Shown: positions 5,201-13,823, counted from the first letter of the stretch. The stretch is DNA of 64,000 bases from Acetatifactor sp. (GCA_045538995.1 JAZQEK010000097.1:48482-112481), one strand, 5' to 3'. Program-made: numbers and translations. Notes: generated from the sequence alone by a model not told the origin.

Positions 5201-5464
5201 ACTTAATAACAGACAACACATATGAGCTTGTTTGTAGGAGTTATATTTTTTTATCAGTCATCCTTAGTTGGATGTCGCTTTATTCATTATCTAAGATTGT
5301 GCCCAAAGAAGCCATTTTAGATATCGTTCTCATTTCTGGGATTATCCAGTTAAATTAGTAAATTTAGAAAAAGAAAAGAAAATTATTGCAAAATGTTGTC
5401 TGTTTTAGAAATTTTAGATATAATTCTTACAGATAGGTTTCATATGGTTCGCAGAAGGAGGCAT

Positions 5465-6424
5465 ATGGAGCAAAAAACAACTTTATCACAAAGCATCGAG
5501 TTGACTGAGCAGAAGTCACAATATGATTCATCCTGTAAGAGGGTTCTTGCAGAAAAAGTAATTCTGGCGTGGATTATGAAGCATACCATGAAGGAGTATA
5601 TGAAGTATGATGTGCGGGAGATTGCTGGAAGGTATATTGTGGGGGAACCTAAAATCGGAGTGACACCGGTACTACCGGATGAAACCAATGCACCTAGAAT
5701 TGTAGGGATTGGTGTAGAGGATACCACATTGAATGAAGGCACCATTACTTACGACATACAGTTTCAGGCAATTGTGCCGGAAACGGAAGAAATGGTACAG
5801 ATGATTATCAACGTGGAAGCCCAAAATGATTTTTACCCGGGGTATCCAATTGTGAAGCGAGGGATTTATTATTGTGCACGTATGATTTCTTCCCAGTATG
5901 GTACGATATTTACGAAGTCTCATTATGAGAGGATTAAGAAGGTATATTCCGTGTGGATCTGTATGAATCCGCCAAAGGAGCGAAGTAATACGATTACAGA
6001 ATATTCCCTAATGGAGCAGAAGCTGTTTGGAAACGTGAAGGAGAACAGGGTACACTATGATTTGATGAGTGTAGTTATGGTCTGTTTGGGTGAAGGAAAT
6101 ACAGATAATGACCTGTTAAGGCTGTTGGATGTATTATTGGCATCGGATAAGAAGGCGGACGAAAAGAAAGAAATACTGGAGAAGGATTTTCAGATTCCTA
6201 TGACAGAGAAGTTAGAAGAAGAGGTGGAGCGAATGTGTAATTTGAGTGAGGGTGTGGAGCAGAGAGGTATACAGCAAGGGCTGGAACAGGGGATACAGCG
6301 GCAAAAGTTGGAAAGTGCAAAAAGTCTGCTGGATATTTTATCGGATGAGGAAATTGCTAAGCGTATCCGATTACCCTTAGAAGAAGTGCAAAAGCTTCGA
6401 GAGGAGAGTACAGTGAATTGTTAA
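5465..6424 (+). CDS. Rpn family recombination-promoting nuclease / putative transposase (PD-(D/E)XK)
   Basis: YDSSCKRVLA, ITYDIQF, INVEAQNDFYPGYPIVKRGIYYCARMISSQ, KKVYSVWIC and a C-terminal MCNLSEGVEQRGIQQG repeat. AAGGAGG RBS precedes ATG 5465. Confidence 0.85.
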   Translation: MEQKTTLSQSIELTEQKSQYDSSCKRVLAEKVILAWIMKHTMKEYMKYDVREIAGRYIVGEPKIGVTPVLPDETNAPRIVGIGVEDTTLNEGTITYDIQFQAIVPETEEMVQMIINVEAQNDFYPGYPIVKRGIYYCARMISSQYGTIFTKSHYERIKKVYSVWICMNPPKERSNTITEYSLMEQKLFGNVKENRVHYDLMSVVMVCLGEGNTDNDLLRLLDVLLASDKKADEKKEILEKDFQIPMTEKLEEEVERMCNLSEGVEQRGIQQGLEQGIQRQKLESAKSLLDILSDEEIAKRIRLPLEEVQKLREESTVNC

Positions 6425-6790: not shown

Positions 6791-7567
6791 TTATCGGGTA
6801 AAGATCTGGCACCAATAGTCAGTTCCCTTGGTATTTTCATAATAGCCTACACCGATAGTAGTGAAATTAGGGTTCATGATATTGGCACGGTGACCAGAGC
6901 TGTTCATCCAAGCATTCATTACCTCTTCGGGAGAACGCTGTCCCCAAGCAATGTTTTCACCTGCACTTCGATAAGAAACATTCTGTTCCTTTAAGGCAGT
7001 AGAAAAAGAGCTGCCGTTAGGTCTGGTATGTGAGAAAAGCTGCTCGCATTCCTTGGCACGAACCTTAGCTGCTGCCTGCACATTAGTATTGATGGTTAGT
7101 GGAGCGAGTCCCTCCTTGGCACGTTCTGCATTTACAAGACGAACAACCTCCCTGATAAAAGCATGTTCGCTGTCCGGAGCTTCTTCGGGTGTACTTTCCT
7201 CAGTGGAACTATTTCCAGGATTGTTGTTCGGGGTGTTGTTGCCGGGCAAATCGGTTTCAGGAATATCAACATCAGGTACGCCTGCCTCAGGAGCGTCAAT
7301 TTCCGGGAGATTGTTATCCGGGACATTCGTCTCCGGTGCATCAGCATCCGGAAGCTCACAGTCCGGCAAAGAGATGTTTGGGAAGCAACCTTCCAGTTTA
7401 TTGAAAATGTCCTGAATATTACAGCCTGAACGATAAGTAACAATAATTCGGTTACCATTTGAAAATATGTGCTTCTTGTTTAAGATAGCTGCTTCTGTGG
7501 TAAGTGCCTGTCCGCCAAGACAGGTCATAGTGAGTGTGGTTACTGCTAATAATGTAAGTTTTTTCAT
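6791..7567 (-). CDS. Secreted CAP/SCP-domain protein (YkwD-like) with Pro-rich linker
   Basis: Signal peptide MKKLTLLAVTT..., xPxxx repeat linker, and a CAP domain (LVNAERAKEGLAPL, FSHTRPNG, AGENIAWGQ, WMNSSGHRANI, WCQIF). AAGGAG RBS precedes 7567. Confidence 0.85.
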   Translation of the reverse strand: MKKLTLLAVTTLTMTCLGGQALTTEAAILNKKHIFSNGNRIIVTYRSGCNIQDIFNKLEGCFPNISLPDCELPDADAPETNVPDNNLPEIDAPEAGVPDVDIPETDLPGNNTPNNNPGNSSTEESTPEEAPDSEHAFIREVVRLVNAERAKEGLAPLTINTNVQAAAKVRAKECEQLFSHTRPNGSSFSTALKEQNVSYRSAGENIAWGQRSPEEVMNAWMNSSGHRANIMNPNFTTIGVGYYENTKGTDYWCQIFTR

Positions 7568-7751
7568 ATTGTTCTTTATTCTCCTTTCGTAAGTATTTCG
7601 CAATAAGTTTAGCCAAATAAATATTGCGAAAATAATACATAAATGTTACAAAATTATTACAAGACAATCATAATACATTTCCCCAAGATTTCAACAAGTA
7701 ATATTTGGAAATTGGTTTCAGTTATATTTTAAAACTTTTTTAAAAAACCTC

Positions 7752-7780
7752 TTGACATATTATCAAAATGATAATATGAT
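7752..7780 (+). promoter_or_regulatory. sigmaA promoter of the NAD-salvage operon
   Basis: TTGACA (7752-7757), 17-bp spacer, TATGAT (7775-7780). Confidence 0.8.
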
Positions 7781-7815
7781 AATCTCAACAAGAGATAATA
7801 TCAAAATGATAATAA
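7757..7815. promoter_or_regulatory. Candidate NrtR operators (21-bp palindromes)
   Basis: Perfect ATATTATCA-AAA-TGATAATAT (7757-7777) between -35 and -10, near-copy ATAATATCA-AAA-TGATAATAA (7795-7815), and weaker ATAATCTCA-ACA-AGAGATAAT (7779-7799). nrtR is in the operon. Confidence 0.75.
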
Positions 7816-7837
7816 CAAAATAACGGAGGTAGGGATT

Positions 7838-8338
7838 ATGAAGAAGACTTTAATCGTAGTGGATATGCAGAAGGATTTTATTGATGGTGCATTAGGAACC
7901 AAGGAAGCAGTTGCTATTGTGGAAAATGTAAAGAAGAAAATCGCAGAGTATCAGGCTGCCGGAGAGGAAATCATTTTCACCAGAGATACCCATCAGGCAG
8001 ATTACTTAAGCACCAACGAGGGCAAGCACCTGCCGGTAGAGCACTGCATCGAGGGAACTGAGGGTTGGCAGATTTACGAGGGTTTGGAAGTACCCGGTGC
8101 TATTTATATTAACAAGCCTAATTTCGGTTACATCGGTTGGGCAGACTATCAGCTGGAAGAGGTAGAAATGGTTGGCTTGTGTACCGATATTTGTGTAGTA
8201 TCTAATGCACTGATTTTGAAAGCTACTTATCCGGAAATCAAGGTGACTGTAGACGCAAGCTGCTGTGCAGGGGTTACCCCGGAAAGTCATGAAGCAGCAC
8301 TGACTACCATGAAAATGTGTCAGGTTGAGGTAGTGTAG
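7838..8338 (+). CDS. pncA: Nicotinamidase / isochorismatase-family cysteine hydrolase
   Basis: VVDMQKDF, DTH...HC metal ligands, K, and GLCTDICV catalytic Cys. First gene of the NAD operon. Confidence 0.85.
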   Translation: MKKTLIVVDMQKDFIDGALGTKEAVAIVENVKKKIAEYQAAGEEIIFTRDTHQADYLSTNEGKHLPVEHCIEGTEGWQIYEGLEVPGAIYINKPNFGYIGWADYQLEEVEMVGLCTDICVVSNALILKATYPEIKVTVDASCCAGVTPESHEAALTTMKMCQVEVV

Positions 8339-8367
8339 GTTAAGAATGGTATAAGGAGGAAGCTTGC

Positions 8368-9159
8368 ATGATTAAATTAAATGATAAGCCCATAAATTTG
8401 AACCATTTTCCGGATGGCACCTTGCTCATGAAGGAGCCGGTACCGGAAGTAGAGAAGGTAGTCATTACTTGGTTATTTGAGAATAATGAAGAGCTGGTAG
8501 CATTATATTTTCTGGTAAAGCATTTGCAGGCAAAGGGAATTACAAATATTGAACTGAAGCTTCCTTATATTCCCAATGCCCGTCAGGACAGAGTGAAGGC
8601 ACCGGAAGATGTGTTTACTCTAAAGTATTTTGCACAGATGATAAATGAGTTGAACTTTAGCAAGGTAACGGTGTTAGACCCGCACTCCTATGTGAGTGAG
8701 GCGTTAATTCATCACATCGATATTCAGACCCCGAAGAAATATGTAGAAAAGGTGCTTAACCAAATTGGTGCAGAAAACGTGATGTTATTCTTCCCGGATG
8801 AGGGGGCTATGAAGCGTTATTCCAGTATGTTTGAGCTCCCCTATGCTTTTGGCATGAAGAAGCGAGACTGGACCACGGGGCAGATACAGGGACTGGATGT
8901 GGCAGGCCAGACAGAGTACATCAAAGGAAGTACGGTGCTGATTGTAGACGATATTTGCAGCAAGGGTGGTACGTTCTACTACAGTGCCAAAGCTTTGAAG
9001 GAGCTGGGAGCAGAAAAAGTGTATTTGTATATTTCTCACTGTGAGAACAGTATTTTCGAGGGAGAATTGTTGGAGACTGATTGGATAGAGAAGATTTTCA
9101 CAATCAATAGTATTTTCGCAAAGGAACATGAAAAGGTGGAGGTGTTTGATTATGAATAG
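8368..9159 (+). CDS. prs: Ribose-phosphate pyrophosphokinase-like protein, short atypical form (Prs/Adps-like)
   Basis: FPDG, LPYIPNARQDR, DPHS, PDEGAMKRY, KKRD and VDDICSKGGT. Only 263 aa. Confidence 0.8.
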   Translation: MIKLNDKPINLNHFPDGTLLMKEPVPEVEKVVITWLFENNEELVALYFLVKHLQAKGITNIELKLPYIPNARQDRVKAPEDVFTLKYFAQMINELNFSKVTVLDPHSYVSEALIHHIDIQTPKKYVEKVLNQIGAENVMLFFPDEGAMKRYSSMFELPYAFGMKKRDWTTGQIQGLDVAGQTEYIKGSTVLIVDDICSKGGTFYYSAKALKELGAEKVYLYISHCENSIFEGELLETDWIEKIFTINSIFAKEHEKVEVFDYE

Positions 9160-10627
9160 AATAAATCCTATGTTGTTAATTGACTTTTATAAAGCAGTGC
9201 ATGCGGAAATGCTGCCCAAGGATATTACCAAGTCCGTGTCTTATTTCACTCCGCGTATGAGTCGTGTGGAGCGTTGGGATAAGGTGGTTATGTTTGGTTT
9301 GCAGGGCTTTATTAAGACTTATCTGATTGACTATTTTAATCAGGAGTTTTTCGGTAAGCCTTTTGAAGAAGTGATTGGGGAATACAAGCGTATCATGGAT
9401 GCAGCTTTGGGTGCAGAAGCATATAAAATAGAGAAAATTGAAAAGCTTCACAAGTTAGGCTATTTGCCCATCGAAATCATAGCTTTGCCGGAGGGAGCGC
9501 TGGTGCCTATGCATGTGCCCATGTTCGGTATTACCAATACCCATCCGGAGTTTGCATGGTTACCCCAGTCTTTGGAAAGTTTAATTTCTGCGGAAAGCTG
9601 GCATCCTATGATTGCAGCAACGGTGGGTTATACCTATCGTCAGATTGTAAACGAGTATTATGCAAAGACCTGCGACGATAATGTACCTCGTGCAAGAGCT
9701 TTGGGTGCGTTCGACTTCCGCGGTGAGGAATGTACGGAGTCTGCTATTAAAGCCGGTGCAGGCTGGTGTCTGTCTTTCTTAAATACAGCAACAGTACCCA
9801 CCATTCCCTATTTGGAGCAGATGTATGTCTGTGACTGTACCAAGGAGCCGGTAGCTTTCGGAAGTCCCAGTACAGAGCATAGTGTAATGTGCAGTAATTA
9901 TGCTATGGACGGCGATGAGGTAACCTTATTAAAGCGTCTTTTGACAGAGATTTATCCCAATACCAGCTTCAGTGCAGTGCTGGATTCTTATGATTATTGG
10001 AATGTGATTGACAATGTGCTTCCACAGATTAAAGAGGAAATCATGGCACACAACGGGTGCATGCTGATGCGTGGTGACTCCGGTGAATGTGTTGATGTGG
10101 TGACACAGACAGTGTTCAAGCTTTGGGAGCAGTTCGGCGGCACCGTAAACAGCAAGGGTTACAAGGTACTTGATCCGCATGTAAAAGCTATTTACGGAGA
10201 TTCTATTACCATCCAGAGATGCGAGGAAATTTACCGTATTCTGGAGGAGAATGGTTTTGCCTGCTCTAATGTGGCACTGGGCGTTGGTTCCTTCTCTATG
10301 CAGTGTATTGAGGAAGATGGTATCTTGAAGCCTTTCACCAGAGATACTTTCAGCTCTTGCATCAAGGCAACCTACTGTGAAATCGCAGATAAGCCTTACC
10401 CCATCTTCAAAAATCCCAAGGATGGCGGTTTCAAAAAGTCTCAAAAGGGTTGCTGTGTGGTAGTAAAGGACGCTACCGGAAGCTATACCTTCCAGGATGG
10501 CTTTACCTGGGAAGAGGCATGCGGAGATGAACTGAATGAATTAGTGCCCGTGTTTAAGGATGGTAAATTGCTGGTGGAGCAGAGCTTACAGCAGGTTCGT
10601 GCGCAGCTGCATGAAGGGAAATTTTAG
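9152..10627 (+). CDS. Nicotinate/nicotinamide phosphoribosyltransferase, NAMPT (NadV) fold
   Basis: DFYK, TPR, FDFRG, TEHSV, VLDSYD, RGDSG, YGDSI, TRD and KSQKG match NAMPT-family motifs. ATG 9152 overlaps the prs stop. Confidence 0.85.
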   Translation: MNRINPMLLIDFYKAVHAEMLPKDITKSVSYFTPRMSRVERWDKVVMFGLQGFIKTYLIDYFNQEFFGKPFEEVIGEYKRIMDAALGAEAYKIEKIEKLHKLGYLPIEIIALPEGALVPMHVPMFGITNTHPEFAWLPQSLESLISAESWHPMIAATVGYTYRQIVNEYYAKTCDDNVPRARALGAFDFRGEECTESAIKAGAGWCLSFLNTATVPTIPYLEQMYVCDCTKEPVAFGSPSTEHSVMCSNYAMDGDEVTLLKRLLTEIYPNTSFSAVLDSYDYWNVIDNVLPQIKEEIMAHNGCMLMRGDSGECVDVVTQTVFKLWEQFGGTVNSKGYKVLDPHVKAIYGDSITIQRCEEIYRILEENGFACSNVALGVGSFSMQCIEEDGILKPFTRDTFSSCIKATYCEIADKPYPIFKNPKDGGFKKSQKGCCVVVKDATGSYTFQDGFTWEEACGDELNELVPVFKDGKLLVEQSLQQVRAQLHEGKF

Positions 10628-10668
10628 GGTTAGAATAGGTAGAATAAGATAGAAAAGAGGAAAACGCT

Positions 10669-11397
10669 ATGTATGAATTTAACGTAAAAGAAACCACTGC
10701 GAAATGTATACAGTGGATTAGAGATTGGTTTGAAGTAAACGGAGTGGGTTGTAACGCTATCGTGGGTATTTCCGGTGGTAAGGACAGTTCTGTGGTGGCT
10801 GCACTTTGCGTAGAAGCTTTGGGCAAGGATAGGGTTATCGGTGTGCTCATGCCTTGTGGAGAGCAGGCAGATATTGATATGTCTCAGAAATTGGTAAAGC
10901 ACCTAGGCATCAAAAGCTATGAAGTGAATATTGAAAACGCTGTGAATGGATTGCTGGGAGAATTAAAGGATTTCGAAATTTCTAAGCAGACCCGCATCAA
11001 TCTGCCTCCTCGTATTCGTATGGCTACCCTCTATGCGGTGGGTCAGAGCATGAATGGGCGTGTGGCAAATACCTGTAATCTGTCCGAGGACTGGGTAGGT
11101 TATTCTACCAGATATGGTGACAGTGTAGGGGATTTCAGCCCCTTGTCACGATTGACGGTAACGGAGGTAAAGGCCATTGGTAGAGAACTGAATCTGCCGG
11201 ATGATTTAGTAGATAAGGTGCCGAGCGATGGTCTCACCGGAAAGACGGATGAGGATAATCTGGGATTCACTTACGAGATGCTGGACAAATATATCCGTGA
11301 AGGTGTCTGTGAAGATGAAGAGAAGCGGGCTCTGATTGACGACAAGCACAGAAAGAACTTGTTCAAGCTGGAGCTGATGCCTTGCTTTGAGCCGTAA
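10669..11397 (+). CDS. nadE: NH3-dependent NAD+ synthetase
   Basis: GISGGKDSS PP-loop, NLPPRIRMATLY, NTCNLSE, GYSTRYGD and PSDGL...DEDNLG. No glutaminase domain. Confidence 0.9.
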   Translation: MYEFNVKETTAKCIQWIRDWFEVNGVGCNAIVGISGGKDSSVVAALCVEALGKDRVIGVLMPCGEQADIDMSQKLVKHLGIKSYEVNIENAVNGLLGELKDFEISKQTRINLPPRIRMATLYAVGQSMNGRVANTCNLSEDWVGYSTRYGDSVGDFSPLSRLTVTEVKAIGRELNLPDDLVDKVPSDGLTGKTDEDNLGFTYEMLDKYIREGVCEDEEKRALIDDKHRKNLFKLELMPCFEP

Positions 11398-11427
11398 ATG
11401 ACGTAAAAATCAACAGGTGAGGTAAGT

Positions 11428-12333
11428 ATGAACTTATATAAGATAAGTGTCGAAGAACAGAACTATCTGGCACAGTATGATATTACAAAATTTGAGCGTC
11501 CTTCCCTAGCGACGGATATGGCTATTTTCTCTATTATGGAGGAGGGGGAGCATGAGAATTATCGTAAGCTCCCCAAGAAAGCCTTGAAGCTGTTGTTAAT
11601 CAAGCGTGCCACCTATCCTTTTAAGGATTTGTGGGCACTGCCGGGTGGATTTTGCAGACCGGATGAGGATGTATATGAAACTGCCAAGCGGGAGTTGTAT
11701 GAAGAAACCCATGTGAATGCTGCTTATTTGCAGCTGGCAGGTACTTTTGGAGAAATCGGCAGAGATCCCAGAGGGTGGATTATCTCCAATACCTTTTTGT
11801 CGCTGGTAAATGGAGAGGATTGTAAGCCCAGAGGGGGAACCGATGCCTGGGAGGCTAAGTGGTTTTCTATAGATTTAGTGATTCGCGATAGCCGGAAGAA
11901 TTTGCAGGCAGAATCGGTAGAAATAGTAACAGAATATGAGTTGAAGCTTTGCCATGAGGAAACGGGTGAGTTTTTGTTCGCTATTGTGAAGGAATATAAG
12001 CAGTTCGAGCATTATCATGAGACAGTACGTTATGAAATCTTGGATAGCAAAGGGCTTGCTTTTGACCATGCAAAGATTATTCTGCATACCCTGCTGTTTT
12101 TGCGTAAGAGTGTGGAAAGTGATTGGAAGTTGGCATTTGACCTGATGCCGGATTTGTTTACGCTGACACAGCTGCAGAATGCATTTGAATTAATACTGGA
12201 TCAGAAGCTGTTAACAGCCAATTTCCGCAGAAAAATCAATGATTATGTTATTGAGACAGAGCAAAGTATCGAAGGGTCCGGACATCGCCCGGCGAAGCTG
12301 TTTAAGAGAAATATTGAGGAATTTTATAGGTAA
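11428..12333 (+). CDS. nrtR: NrtR family Nudix-related transcriptional regulator
   Basis: N-terminal Nudix domain (WALPGGF...E...RELYEET, RDPRGW, LAFDHAKI) plus C-terminal winged helix (FTLTQLQ...NFRRKI...GHRPAKLF). Confidence 0.85.
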   Translation: MNLYKISVEEQNYLAQYDITKFERPSLATDMAIFSIMEEGEHENYRKLPKKALKLLLIKRATYPFKDLWALPGGFCRPDEDVYETAKRELYEETHVNAAYLQLAGTFGEIGRDPRGWIISNTFLSLVNGEDCKPRGGTDAWEAKWFSIDLVIRDSRKNLQAESVEIVTEYELKLCHEETGEFLFAIVKEYKQFEHYHETVRYEILDSKGLAFDHAKIILHTLLFLRKSVESDWKLAFDLMPDLFTLTQLQNAFELILDQKLLTANFRRKINDYVIETEQSIEGSGHRPAKLFKRNIEEFYR

Positions 12334-12893
12334 TGAAAGCAGAGAAGAAAGAAATAAGGGCAGTATATACAGCTGACACCATAAGAGTGTATCAGGCATA
12401 CTGCAAAGAAATTGCGGAAGAGGCAGTGCAAAAAGGAACTTTTGGAAGTCGTTTTAAGATGGAAAGAATGACCTGGATTAAGCCATCCTTTCTGTGGATG
12501 ATGTACCGCTGCGGCTGGGGAACGAAGGAAGGACAGGAGCGTATACTGGCTATCGATATGAAGCGAGAGGCTTTTGATTATATTGTTCAAAATGCAGTGG
12601 TATCCTCCTATAAGGAGGAGTTGGGTATCACTCATGCACAGTGGCAGGAGCAGGTAAAAAGCTCTGATATCCGATGCCAATGGGACCCTGAGCGGGATAT
12701 TCACGGAAATCCTTTGGAATACCGTTCCCTGCAACTGGGATTACGCGGAAAGGCAGTGTACTCGTATGTAAATGAGTGGATTGTACATATCGAGGATATT
12801 ACAGACTATGTGACGGATTTGCGTGAGAAGAAAAGTGAGGGCGTGGATATTCTGGATTTGCTGCCTGAAGAGCGAGTGTATGAGGTGAAATAG
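12333..12893 (+). CDS. DUF4291 family protein
   Basis: IRAVY...IRVYQAY, RMTWIKPSFLWMMYRCGWG, QWDPERD and RSLQLGL. TAATG overlap with nrtR. Confidence 0.8.
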   Translation: MKAEKKEIRAVYTADTIRVYQAYCKEIAEEAVQKGTFGSRFKMERMTWIKPSFLWMMYRCGWGTKEGQERILAIDMKREAFDYIVQNAVVSSYKEELGITHAQWQEQVKSSDIRCQWDPERDIHGNPLEYRSLQLGLRGKAVYSYVNEWIVHIEDITDYVTDLREKKSEGVDILDLLPEERVYEVK

Positions 12894-12906
12894 AATGGAT
12901 TATGCG

Positions 12907-12937
12907 AAGAGGGATGCTGTGAAAATGCATCCCTCTT
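12907..12937. terminator. Bidirectional intrinsic terminator
   Basis: aagagggatgc-tgtgaaaat-gcatccctctt between convergent genes. Confidence 0.75.
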
Positions 12938-13823
12938 ATTTTTTAGTTCTTCTGCAATAAAGAGAGGATTTTATCTTTACCAGCTCACCAATCATAGCAC
13001 CACCAATGATGAACGCTGCACCAATTATTTGAACTGCTGTCATTTTCTCATTAAGCAAAATTGATGCGAAAACTACTGCCGATAATGGTTCCAGATAACC
13101 ACACACAGCTACAGTCTGTACAGGTAATTTGGCAAGTGGTGAAAAGTACAAATAGCATCCTATACCTGTATTTACAATACCCAGCATTAAAATCCAACCC
13201 CAAGAATCAGAAGGTATCCTCATAACAAATCCTTGCTTACAACATACAAATACTGCTACTGTCAAGAAACTTACTATAAGCTGTATTACAGCATTTTCCA
13301 TTCCTGTAATATTCTTCGATTGCTTATTTAATGTTACCATGAAGAAATACATAACTGCTGACATAACACCACAAATAATCCCCCATGTATTGCTATTATC
13401 ACCGACTACATTACCATTAACAAGTACTATTCCGGTTAACACCATCATAAATCCTATCATCTTCGGTACAGTAAGCTTTTCTTTGAAAATCAAAGGCGAT
13501 AATATCATAACAATTACCGGTCCGCAATAATATAACAGGGATGCCAAACTCACACCTATTTGTTGATAAGCCTCATACAAAAACATCCAACTCGTTCCCA
13601 TTGCTATTCCCGATAATACAATAAACATAACATCTTTCTTTTGTGTAGTAATATGAAATTTGCCTTTACCTAATAAAAACAAAAGCATTAAAAGTGCACT
13701 TCCGATAAGTGTTCTTAAAAACACAATCTCATAACTACTAAGTGCAATATGACTTGCAACAATGCCATTAAGTCCAAACAGAAATAGTGCAGACAGATAT
13801 TTTATAAATGCTTTCTGATCCAT
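12936..13823 (-). CDS. EamA/DMT family transporter
   Basis: About ten hydrophobic segments, with YEAYQQIGVSLASLLYYCGP and YLEPLSA EamA-type motifs. GAGG RBS precedes 13823. Confidence 0.85.
   Translation of the reverse strand: MDQKAFIKYLSALFLFGLNGIVASHIALSSYEIVFLRTLIGSALLMLLFLLGKGKFHITTQKKDVMFIVLSGIAMGTSWMFLYEAYQQIGVSLASLLYYCGPVIVMILSPLIFKEKLTVPKMIGFMMVLTGIVLVNGNVVGDNSNTWGIICGVMSAVMYFFMVTLNKQSKNITGMENAVIQLIVSFLTVAVFVCCKQGFVMRIPSDSWGWILMLGIVNTGIGCYLYFSPLAKLPVQTVAVCGYLEPLSAVVFASILLNEKMTAVQIIGAAFIIGGAMIGELVKIKSSLYCRRTKK

Follow-up and report, generated by a model that had tools for sequence, protein, structure and literature searches.

What is a nicotinamidase gene doing in one operon with a transferase of the NAMPT fold, when its product would destroy nicotinamide, the substrate of NAMPT? 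The question is raised by a 64-kb stretch of Acetatifactor sp. DNA (family Lachnospiraceae), termed here the window, to which all coordinates refer unless given for another locus. Its proteins are 99% identical to those of a contig from an Acetatifactor sp. metagenome-assembled genome. Within it, six closely packed genes on the plus strand (7838-12893) begin with a pncA-like gene, an adps-like gene, the NAMPT-fold gene, nadE and nrtR, in that order. Depleting NAD+ is a major strategy of defence against phages, and the known means of reversing the loss, starting from ADP-ribose (ADPR) and nicotinamide, is NARP1. NARP1 consists of the enzymes Adps and Namat and is present in phages such as SPbetaL1 and ICP1 as well as in some bacteria (Osterman et al., bioRxiv 10.1101/2024.02.11.579819; PMC12774641; PMC13586617). 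We lean towards the view that the window encodes a deamidating version of NARP1, in which PncA would convert nicotinamide to nicotinate, the Adps-like kinase would make ADPR-pyrophosphate (ADPR-PP) from ADPR and ATP, the transferase would join nicotinate with ADPR-PP to give nicotinate adenine dinucleotide (NaAD), and NadE would amidate NaAD to NAD+, with no adenylyltransferase (NadD) step required.

Judged by its sequence, the transferase is much nearer to Namat than to Nampt. Its mechanically defined open reading frame begins at 9128, the likely start being at 9152 because homologues are 487-493 aa long; the resulting protein of 491 aa (9152-10627, plus strand) scores 390 bits against the Namat structures 9w5w/9w5x and 160-173 bits against Nampts. 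Its AlphaFold2 model, with a predicted local distance difference test score (pLDDT) of 95.6 and a predicted template modelling score of 0.93, has the NAMPT-like two-domain fold and superposes on Namat 9w5x/9w5w with template modelling (TM) scores of 0.92-0.94 and root-mean-square deviations of 1.6-1.8 A; the Namat crystals are followed in the ranking of structural matches by Haemophilus NadV and human NAMPT (TM 0.87). The motifs GSF and YGDS are of the Namat type, their counterparts in Xanthomonas Nampt being GMGGA and QGDG, and none of the marks of Nampt/NadV (Asp219, GxGG in place of GSF, QGDG) was found. The Namat core residues Phe189, Arg192, the catalytic His, Arg306, Asp308, Asp13' and Tyr15' are all present, as is the Arg of the selectivity-clamp loop (TPRMSRVE). 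The PncB family model is not matched; the sole N-terminal Pfam match is NAMPT_N, and the nearest structures are those of Namat and NadV/Nampt.

Two residues typical of the Namat pocket are replaced: Asp215 by Ala213, and the equivalent of Ala242 by Ser. Positions 9767-9811 translate to CLSFLNTATVPTIPY, in which codon 9788-9790 (GCA) specifies Ala, residue 213 counted from the Met at 9152. In a gap-free HMMER alignment, NTATV from this stretch pairs with GTDTI in the Namat crystals 9w5w/9w5x (where the corresponding stretch reads ...SFTGTDTIPAI...) and in 9ke8, and with GTDTL in Xanthomonas Nampt 7yqo; Ala213 therefore corresponds to Asp215 of Namat and Asp219 of human NAMPT, and Asn211-Thr212-Ala213 (9782-9790) stand in place of human Gly217-Thr-Asp219. 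A preliminary description of the locus, based on hand alignment, had placed Ala213 at the position of human Asp219, which the HMMER alignment confirms; as to structure, the model agrees with Namat at the TM scores given above, the residue equivalence itself coming from the sequence alignment, as Foldseek printed no residue-level alignment. In the Namat crystal structure Asp215 is hydrogen-bonded to nicotinamide, and the D215A exchange cuts activity with nicotinamide 8.1-fold (PMC12774641). For human NAMPT, a review table citing Khan et al. 2006 lists D219S as switching substrate affinity and D219A as losing activity, and records that H191R, G217R and A244M block the binding of tunnel inhibitors (PMC4919578, Table 2).

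Among the best 150 representatives in a library clustered at 50% identity, an alignment separates an Asp type (97 representatives, one of them with Glu) from an Ala/Ser type (51 representatives, with Ala in 33, Ser in 17 and Val in one). The residues corresponding to human His191, Gly217, Asp219 and Ala244 read H-G-D-A in 96 of the 97 Asp-type sequences. In the Ala/Ser type the His, itself present in 96/97 of the Asp type, gives way to Ser, Gly, Cys or Ala (Gly185 in the window protein, codon 9704-9706), the Gly to Lys (21 of 51) or Asn (19), and the Ala, again present in 96/97 of the Asp type, to Ser in 49/51 (Ser240 in the window protein, codon 9869-9871, the equivalent of Namat Ala242). Asp16', Tyr18', Phe193, Arg196, His247, Arg311 and Asp313 (human numbering) are invariant in both types. 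The Asp-to-Ala exchange is thus one of four changes that vary together about the pyridine ring's C3 substituent, and it is not a chance event, since it defines a large clade (51/150) and co-varies with three other pocket positions. By this comparison an acidic acceptor of the amide is exchanged for a neutral or basic set of residues, in which Asn/Lys and Ser are potential new hydrogen-bond donors, so that the pocket looks as would be expected for a carboxylate. In a neighbour-joining tree calculated after removal of the switch columns and of a clamp-region insertion described below, 41 of 44 Ala/Ser-type sequences form one pure clade and the remaining three a second one; the Ala/Ser clade diverges to 36-40% identity.

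The strongest evidence comes from gene neighbourhoods. The order pncA-adps-transferase-nadE is conserved in 47 bacterial loci, from Lachnospiraceae, Ruminococcus-like, Mogibacterium and Acutalibacteraceae metagenome-assembled genomes and isolates, with nrtR following or preceding the four genes. A viral scan with the Ala/Ser-type alignment gave 80 loci with 60-85% identity, and a GenBank "Bacteriophage sp." scaffold raises the number to 81; nearly all of them carry Adps, NadE and a PncA-like gene, in two main arrangements. In a control scan with the Asp type (80 viral loci), Adps is present in all judgeable loci, and NadE or PncA in none. Among loci with full flanks, NadE, PncA and Adps accompany the Ala type in 92 of 96 cases (Adps in all 96), whereas NadE or PncA accompany the Asp/Glu type in none of 49 (Fisher p = 2e-34, uncorrected for relatedness). 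The independence of this linkage is argued by divergence and rearrangement: it is kept in at least five gene orders, in bacterial and phage contigs, and representatives with 40-50% identity to the window protein share the same partners. These include P0163 (PncA-Adps-transferase-NadE, in a phage-like context), P0144 (Ser type, NadE-PncA-Adps-transferase), P0142 (PncA-Adps-transferase-NadE, with a near-canonical clamp motif), P0133 (the same partners) and P0200 from the second small clade (transferase-x-NadE-Adps). Scans with single proteins added little: P0144 retrieved one partial viral locus and P0163 mostly the same phage group again.

In two species, one of them the cultured isolate Pseudoruminococcus massiliensis (L032, the other being L031), a 648-aa protein with CN_hydrolase and NAD_synthase domains lies directly after the transferase gene (7491-9437 of these loci, plus strand), in the slot of NadE, and had been missed by the hidden Markov model (HMM) of short NadE. 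This pair of domains is the glutamine-dependent form of NAD synthetase, and the presence of an alternative form in the same slot argues that the amidation function is what selection retains. Adenylyltransferase genes are rare: a NadM-like gene occurs in 2/81 viral loci, and PnuC-NadR in 4/47 bacterial ones. A candidate for a hidden adenylyltransferase, a "nucleotidyltransferase" PHROG match in phage flanks, turned out to be the RNA-repair protein RlaP, and the reading by eye of a 308-aa protein of L033 as an NAD kinase received no support from Pfam.

The first gene (7838-8338, plus strand) encodes a PncA-like nicotinamidase of the isochorismatase family (166 aa; Pfam PF00857, 94.9 bits), with Pyrococcus pyrazinamidase/nicotinamidase 1ilw as its best solved relative. 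It is a short, divergent member, below the NCBIfam cut-off for PncA (NF008623, 42.3 bits vs 174); its catalytic triad (Asp9, Lys93, Cys119) and the residues of its metal site (Asp50, His52, His69) do not vary across 104 distinct copies of the module. The second (8368-9159, plus strand, 263 aa) has the fold of phosphoribosyl pyrophosphate (PRPP) synthetase and is the predicted ADP-ribose pyrophosphokinase. An HMM built solely from Adps genes located beside Asp-type Namat gives it 268.8 bits, compared with 222.4 for the validated ICP1 Adps and 133.8 for E. coli Prs; by this measure it belongs with the Adps of NARP1 and not with housekeeping Prs. The window protein keeps the whole Adps core (Arg87, His121, Asp161, Lys185, Asp212, Asp213), as do 111 module copies. 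The hairpin of the catalytic Lys185 (K-x-R-D-x-x-T-G) reads KKRDWTTG here and KIRDVKTG in ICP1, a DDIC loop provides Cys215, Phe221 and Tyr223 form an aromatic lid, and the C-terminal helices of Prs are missing, the tail after DD being 70 residues long vs 96 in E. coli Prs. A remodelled PP loop, the hairpin and the lost C-terminal helices are structural features of Adps (PMC13586617). NadE (10669-11397, plus strand, 242 aa) is an ammonia-dependent NAD synthetase (TIGR00552, 171.9 bits, cut-off 63.65; PF02540, 177 bits), with the SGGKDS loop visible in the translation.

The fifth gene (11428-12333, plus strand) encodes a regulator of the NrtR type, with a Nudix domain and a winged helix (PF21906, 65.1 bits; PF00293, 63.4 bits; NF050029, 150 bits, below the cut-off of 400); the bacterial loci conserve nrtR, which the phage ones lack. 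Upstream of the operon lies a promoter-like site TTGACA-N17-TATGAT (7752-7780, plus strand), a consensus match only, which with 11/12 positions is the top sigma-70-type match in 7600-13100. Two identical palindromes TATCA-AAA-TGATA are candidate NrtR operators, one between the -35 and -10 hexamers (7761-7773) and the other 38 bp downstream of it (7799-7811). These are the only two copies of TATCA-N3-TGATA in the window, and many orthologous loci likewise have the motif upstream of their operon. The palindromes overlap the promoter, an arrangement to be expected of a repressor. NrtR proteins that have been characterised come off their operators on binding ADPR, including at prs-nadV operons (PMC2330246), and by analogy NrtR probably represses the operon at the two candidate sites and is released by ADPR. 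Read by eye, the Nudix box of the regulator is nearly intact (G-x5-E-x7-REL-Y-EE-T-H-V), only its final Gly being replaced, by His, so that NrtR might hydrolyse ADPR besides sensing it.

Several points weigh against the deamidating NARP1 route. In the clamp helix, where Namat has GSFTYQYNTRD, the window protein has GSFSMQC followed by IEEDGILKP and F-TRD; position 3 is still Phe, and the second clamp aromatic, Namat Tyr396 at position 7, is Cys. The nine inserted residues (10307-10333, plus strand), which AlphaFold2 models as a small beta-hairpin with pLDDT about 90, occur in most, not all, of the Ala/Ser clade. With Tyr396 lost and the insertion present, binding of ADPR-PP by the transferase is not guaranteed. 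Namat itself retains substantial activity with PRPP in vitro (PMC12774641), which makes formation of nicotinate mononucleotide (NaMN) plausible. In the kinase, Lys takes the place of Adps Phe92, a contact to the adenine of ADPR in the ICP1 enzyme, and Ser that of Asp216; position 92 is variable even among Adps of classical loci (Val, Phe, Glu), where Ser replaces Asp216 in 19/70, and the N-terminus (Phe18') cannot be aligned. The nearest solved homologues of the short NadE include both a NaAD-specific relative and the NaMN-amidating enzyme of Francisella. The gene-linkage counts are not phylogenetically independent, and a few Ala-type loci (L008, L010, L019, L033, L041, L105) lack NadE nearby.

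The clamp, the PRPP activity of Namat and the two unconserved Adps positions would all suit the main rival, already named as the conservative alternative in the preliminary description: a look-alike of the Preiss-Handler route, in which the Prs-like enzyme makes PRPP, the Ala-type enzyme makes NaMN, a NadD encoded elsewhere or supplied by the host of the phage adenylylates it, and NadE completes NAD+. It is further favoured by the sole NCBIfam match of the transferase, to NF006629 (PRK09198, "nicotinate phosphoribosyltransferase"; 435.7 bits, cut-off 405), and by the score of the kinase with the Prs model TIGR01251 (110.9 bits), just below its cut-off of 113. We nevertheless regard this sequence of reactions as unlikely, though it deserves to be taken seriously. 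With the Adps-only HMM, the score of the Prs-like protein is double that of E. coli Prs and exceeds that of the validated ICP1 Adps, and the protein shares the Adps-specific hairpin, Cys215 loop, aromatic lid and C-terminal truncation. The modules almost never include an adenylyltransferase, and their Macro/Adpp, NADAR and NrtR partners point to an input of ADPR. Some members of the Ala/Ser clade, moreover, keep the canonical or a near-canonical adenine-clamp motif without the insertion and are still accompanied by the same partners, PncA and NadE. Five points lead us to expect ADPR-PP as the donor: the kinase's identity as an Adps, a transferase scaffold of the Namat type (clade members with an intact clamp among them), the ADPR-related partners (Macro, NADAR in some bacterial loci, and NrtR), the near absence of adenylyltransferase genes and the self-sufficiency that the route would give a phage.

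It is very improbable that nicotinamide is still the base, used by an ordinary Namat/NadV that tolerates the Asp-to-Ala exchange, with PncA and NadE merely co-regulated salvage genes of an NrtR regulon. NrtR regulons elsewhere do group pncA, pncB and nadE (PMC2330246), and D215A leaves Namat with roughly an eighth of its activity (PMC12774641), but the linkage holds in phage contigs without NrtR and in several gene orders, the four pocket positions shift jointly across a clade that diverges to 36-40% identity, and a nicotinamidase in the same operon would remove the transferase's own substrate.

Very improbable, in our opinion, is an order of reactions like that of Francisella, with nicotinate converted to NaMN, the NadE homologue acting as a nicotinamide mononucleotide (NMN) synthetase, and an NMN adenylyltransferase encoded elsewhere yielding NAD+. 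The best solved relative of the window NadE is Pyrococcus NadE 2e18 (122.9 bits), followed by 3fiu (106.5 bits), presumably the F. tularensis NadE homologue; on its similarity to solved structures, the substrate may be either NaAD or NaMN. The Francisella homologue is an NMN synthetase that amidates NaMN, and the archaeal short NadE that was tested is NaAD-specific (PMC3376133). NadM-like or NadR genes do lie beside a few modules, but NMN adenylyltransferase genes are absent from about 95% of them, two species have the two-domain glutamine-dependent NAD synthetase in the NadE slot, and the Adps-like gene would be left unexplained.

Least credible is the use of a different pyridine or other base leading to a product that is not an NAD+ precursor: the changes of His to Gly/Ser and Asp to Ala/Ser would enlarge the pocket, but the transferase is strictly linked to an NAD synthetase, an enzyme that works on a nicotinate carboxylate, and to a protein that has every nicotinamidase residue, and we found no other base-supplying enzyme recurring in the examined loci.

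Across these alternatives, sequence evidence makes it highly probable that nicotinate is the base. For the deamidating NARP1 route as a whole, every part of the original proposal that sequences can test is favoured. The preliminary description had PncA and NadE flanking the transferase gene; both are in the operon, but the Prs-like gene separates PncA from the transferase. The tie it drew between the Ala and these two enzymes holds well beyond the window, the Ala/Ser type being nearly always found beside NadE and a nicotinamidase-like gene and the Asp type never. Its assignment of the conversion of ADPR to ADPR-PP agrees with the grouping of the Prs-like neighbour, by sequence, with the Adps of NARP1, and a route without NadD in the module fits the rarity of adenylyltransferase genes there. 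It also knew of no description of such a four-enzyme nicotinate-ADPR-transferase route, and we too found no published account. In the literature on NARP1, the Namat structure, RyDEP, aRES and jumbo phages, our coverage of which was incomplete, no nicotinate-dependent Namat is mentioned, nor did we find a paper linking ADPR-PP or Namat with nicotinate or NaAD (coverage was again incomplete, and absence is not proven). Three findings go beyond that description: the wide distribution of the module among phages, its inclusion of NrtR and the operators in bacteria, and a change that is not confined to one residue.

The phage loci and some bacterial ones have further recurrent neighbours. A Macro-domain gene of the same family as that of classical NARP1 loci is present in 43/81 Ala-type vs 12/80 Asp-type viral loci. 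Other viral flanking genes match phage protein families and RNA-repair genes; in phage loci L048, L094, L100, L101, L285 and others, the module lies among genes for RNA ligase, RtcB, the RlaP nucleotidyltransferase and an HD phosphohydrolase, which hints at a combined anti-defence region. NADAR-domain genes occur in or beside L041 (7474-7995), L024, L042, L013, L038 and the Asp-type L189, the one in L041 following the transferase gene in the usual place of NadE. Downstream of nrtR in L004, L014, L041 and L024 we found pnuC-nadR-like pairs (nicotinamide riboside uptake and conversion), which may belong to the same NrtR regulon. Genes for SPFH/Band-7 (flotillin-like) proteins adjoin modules in the bacterial L033 (7457-9465) and the phage L071 (9151-10611). 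Two Asp-type representatives, P0158 and P0184, carry intein-like insertions of ~300 residues (beginning with Cys and ending with SHN) inside the adenine-clamp motif, between GS[FY] and TYQ, and many other representatives, 550-900 aa long, align with the query as two separate segments, which points to frequent insertions in the Namat genes of phages. The curated phage collection contains only one close relative of the Ala type, and this scarcity may explain why surveys based on it did not report the type.

In the window nrtR is followed by a gene for a DUF4291 protein (12333-12893, plus strand; PF14124, 242.7 bits), whose start overlaps the stop of nrtR. It is possibly co-transcribed with the operon and is not a conserved member of the module; among related loci only the closest relative, L001, has one. 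The family motifs QAY and WIK are seen in its translation. DUF4291 is predicted to be an atypical ADP-ribosyltransferase-like family, often encoded beside Nudix or Macro genes (2025 survey, PMC12522546). The surroundings of the operon contain genes for a CAP-domain protein, an EamA transporter, a LysR regulator and EPSP synthase; as these flanks are of an ordinary chromosomal kind, an origin from a prophage is ruled out for the immediate surroundings of the bacterial copy. The CAP-domain protein (6791-7603, minus strand) is secreted and has a linker of Pro/Asp/Glu-rich repeats, and further upstream (5393-6424, plus strand) lies a weak PD-(D/E)XK transposase-like reading frame with 26 bits, just below the Pfam cut-off. 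tRNA and Rfam scans of the window gave no matches, and a metatranscriptome search returned a single run with 5% of the sampled words.

In none of the known systems that we compared (NARP1, NARP1-AP, Preiss-Handler, NrtR prs-nadV operons) does an Adps/Namat pair occur together with both a nicotinamidase and an NAD synthetase. With NARP1 the window module shares an adjacent Adps-like/Namat-like pair with the same folds, catalytic cores and predicted inputs (ADPR and ATP), and an occurrence in phages and, less often, bacterial chromosomes. Here, however, other residues stand in place of the nicotinamide-binding Asp and three of its neighbours, the clamp insertion is present in most members, the pair is fixed with a nicotinamidase and an NAD synthetase that are both missing from classical NARP1 loci (0/49), and the predicted product is NaAD instead of NAD+. 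NARP1-AP adds the Macro phosphatase Adpp, which converts ADPR-1''-phosphate to ADPR (bioRxiv 10.64898/2026.01.28.702374); Macro genes of the same family lie inside 43/81 phage modules, but that extension is on the ADPR side, whereas the present change is on the pyridine side, and the window has no Macro gene. As in the Preiss-Handler route (PncA, PncB, NadD, NadE), nicotinamide would be deamidated first and the amide restored last by NadE; unlike it, the module has no PncB or NadD and includes an Adps-like kinase and a transferase of the NAMPT/Namat fold. The prs-nadV operons under NrtR in Shewanella, Acinetobacter and others likewise join a Prs paralogue and a NAMPT-family gene with an ADPR-responsive Nudix-type repressor and tandem operators, but lack pncA and nadE and are read as making NMN from PRPP and nicotinamide (PMC2330246); the comparison with them does not extend to pocket residues. 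In human NAMPT D219S, as tabulated in the review cited above (PMC4919578), the same Asp is exchanged for a small neutral residue with a shift of base preference towards nicotinate; that mutant was engineered by a single exchange in an enzyme dependent on PRPP, whereas here a natural four-position switch is set in a Namat-like scaffold.

On balance, though with considerable reserve, we favour a self-contained, NadD-independent module of four enzymes, which in phages would act against NAD+-depleting defences, often together with an Adpp-like Macro phosphatase, and in Clostridia would form a chromosomal, ADPR-induced operon for NAD+ recycling, repressed by NrtR at two palindromic operators overlapping its promoter. 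Why such a module should take a deamidating detour is a matter of speculation: it may be an adaptation to hosts whose nicotinamidase quickly removes nicotinamide, or it may gain irreversibility from the ATP-driven last step. The four-residue signature separates two kinds of transferase to which the names "nicotinate" and "nicotinamide phosphoribosyltransferase" are currently applied indiscriminately, and offers a natural test case for how the NAMPT fold sets base specificity. NadD is generally treated as an essential step in bacterial NAD+ synthesis. If the proposal is true, the transferase would have an activity that we have not found described, the formation of NaAD from nicotinate and ADPR-PP, and the four enzymes would make up a salvage route bypassing NadD. 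Such a pathway would be common in gut Lachnospiraceae, Ruminococcus-like bacteria and large gut phages, and it could explain how phages restore NAD+ in hosts that rapidly deamidate nicotinamide.

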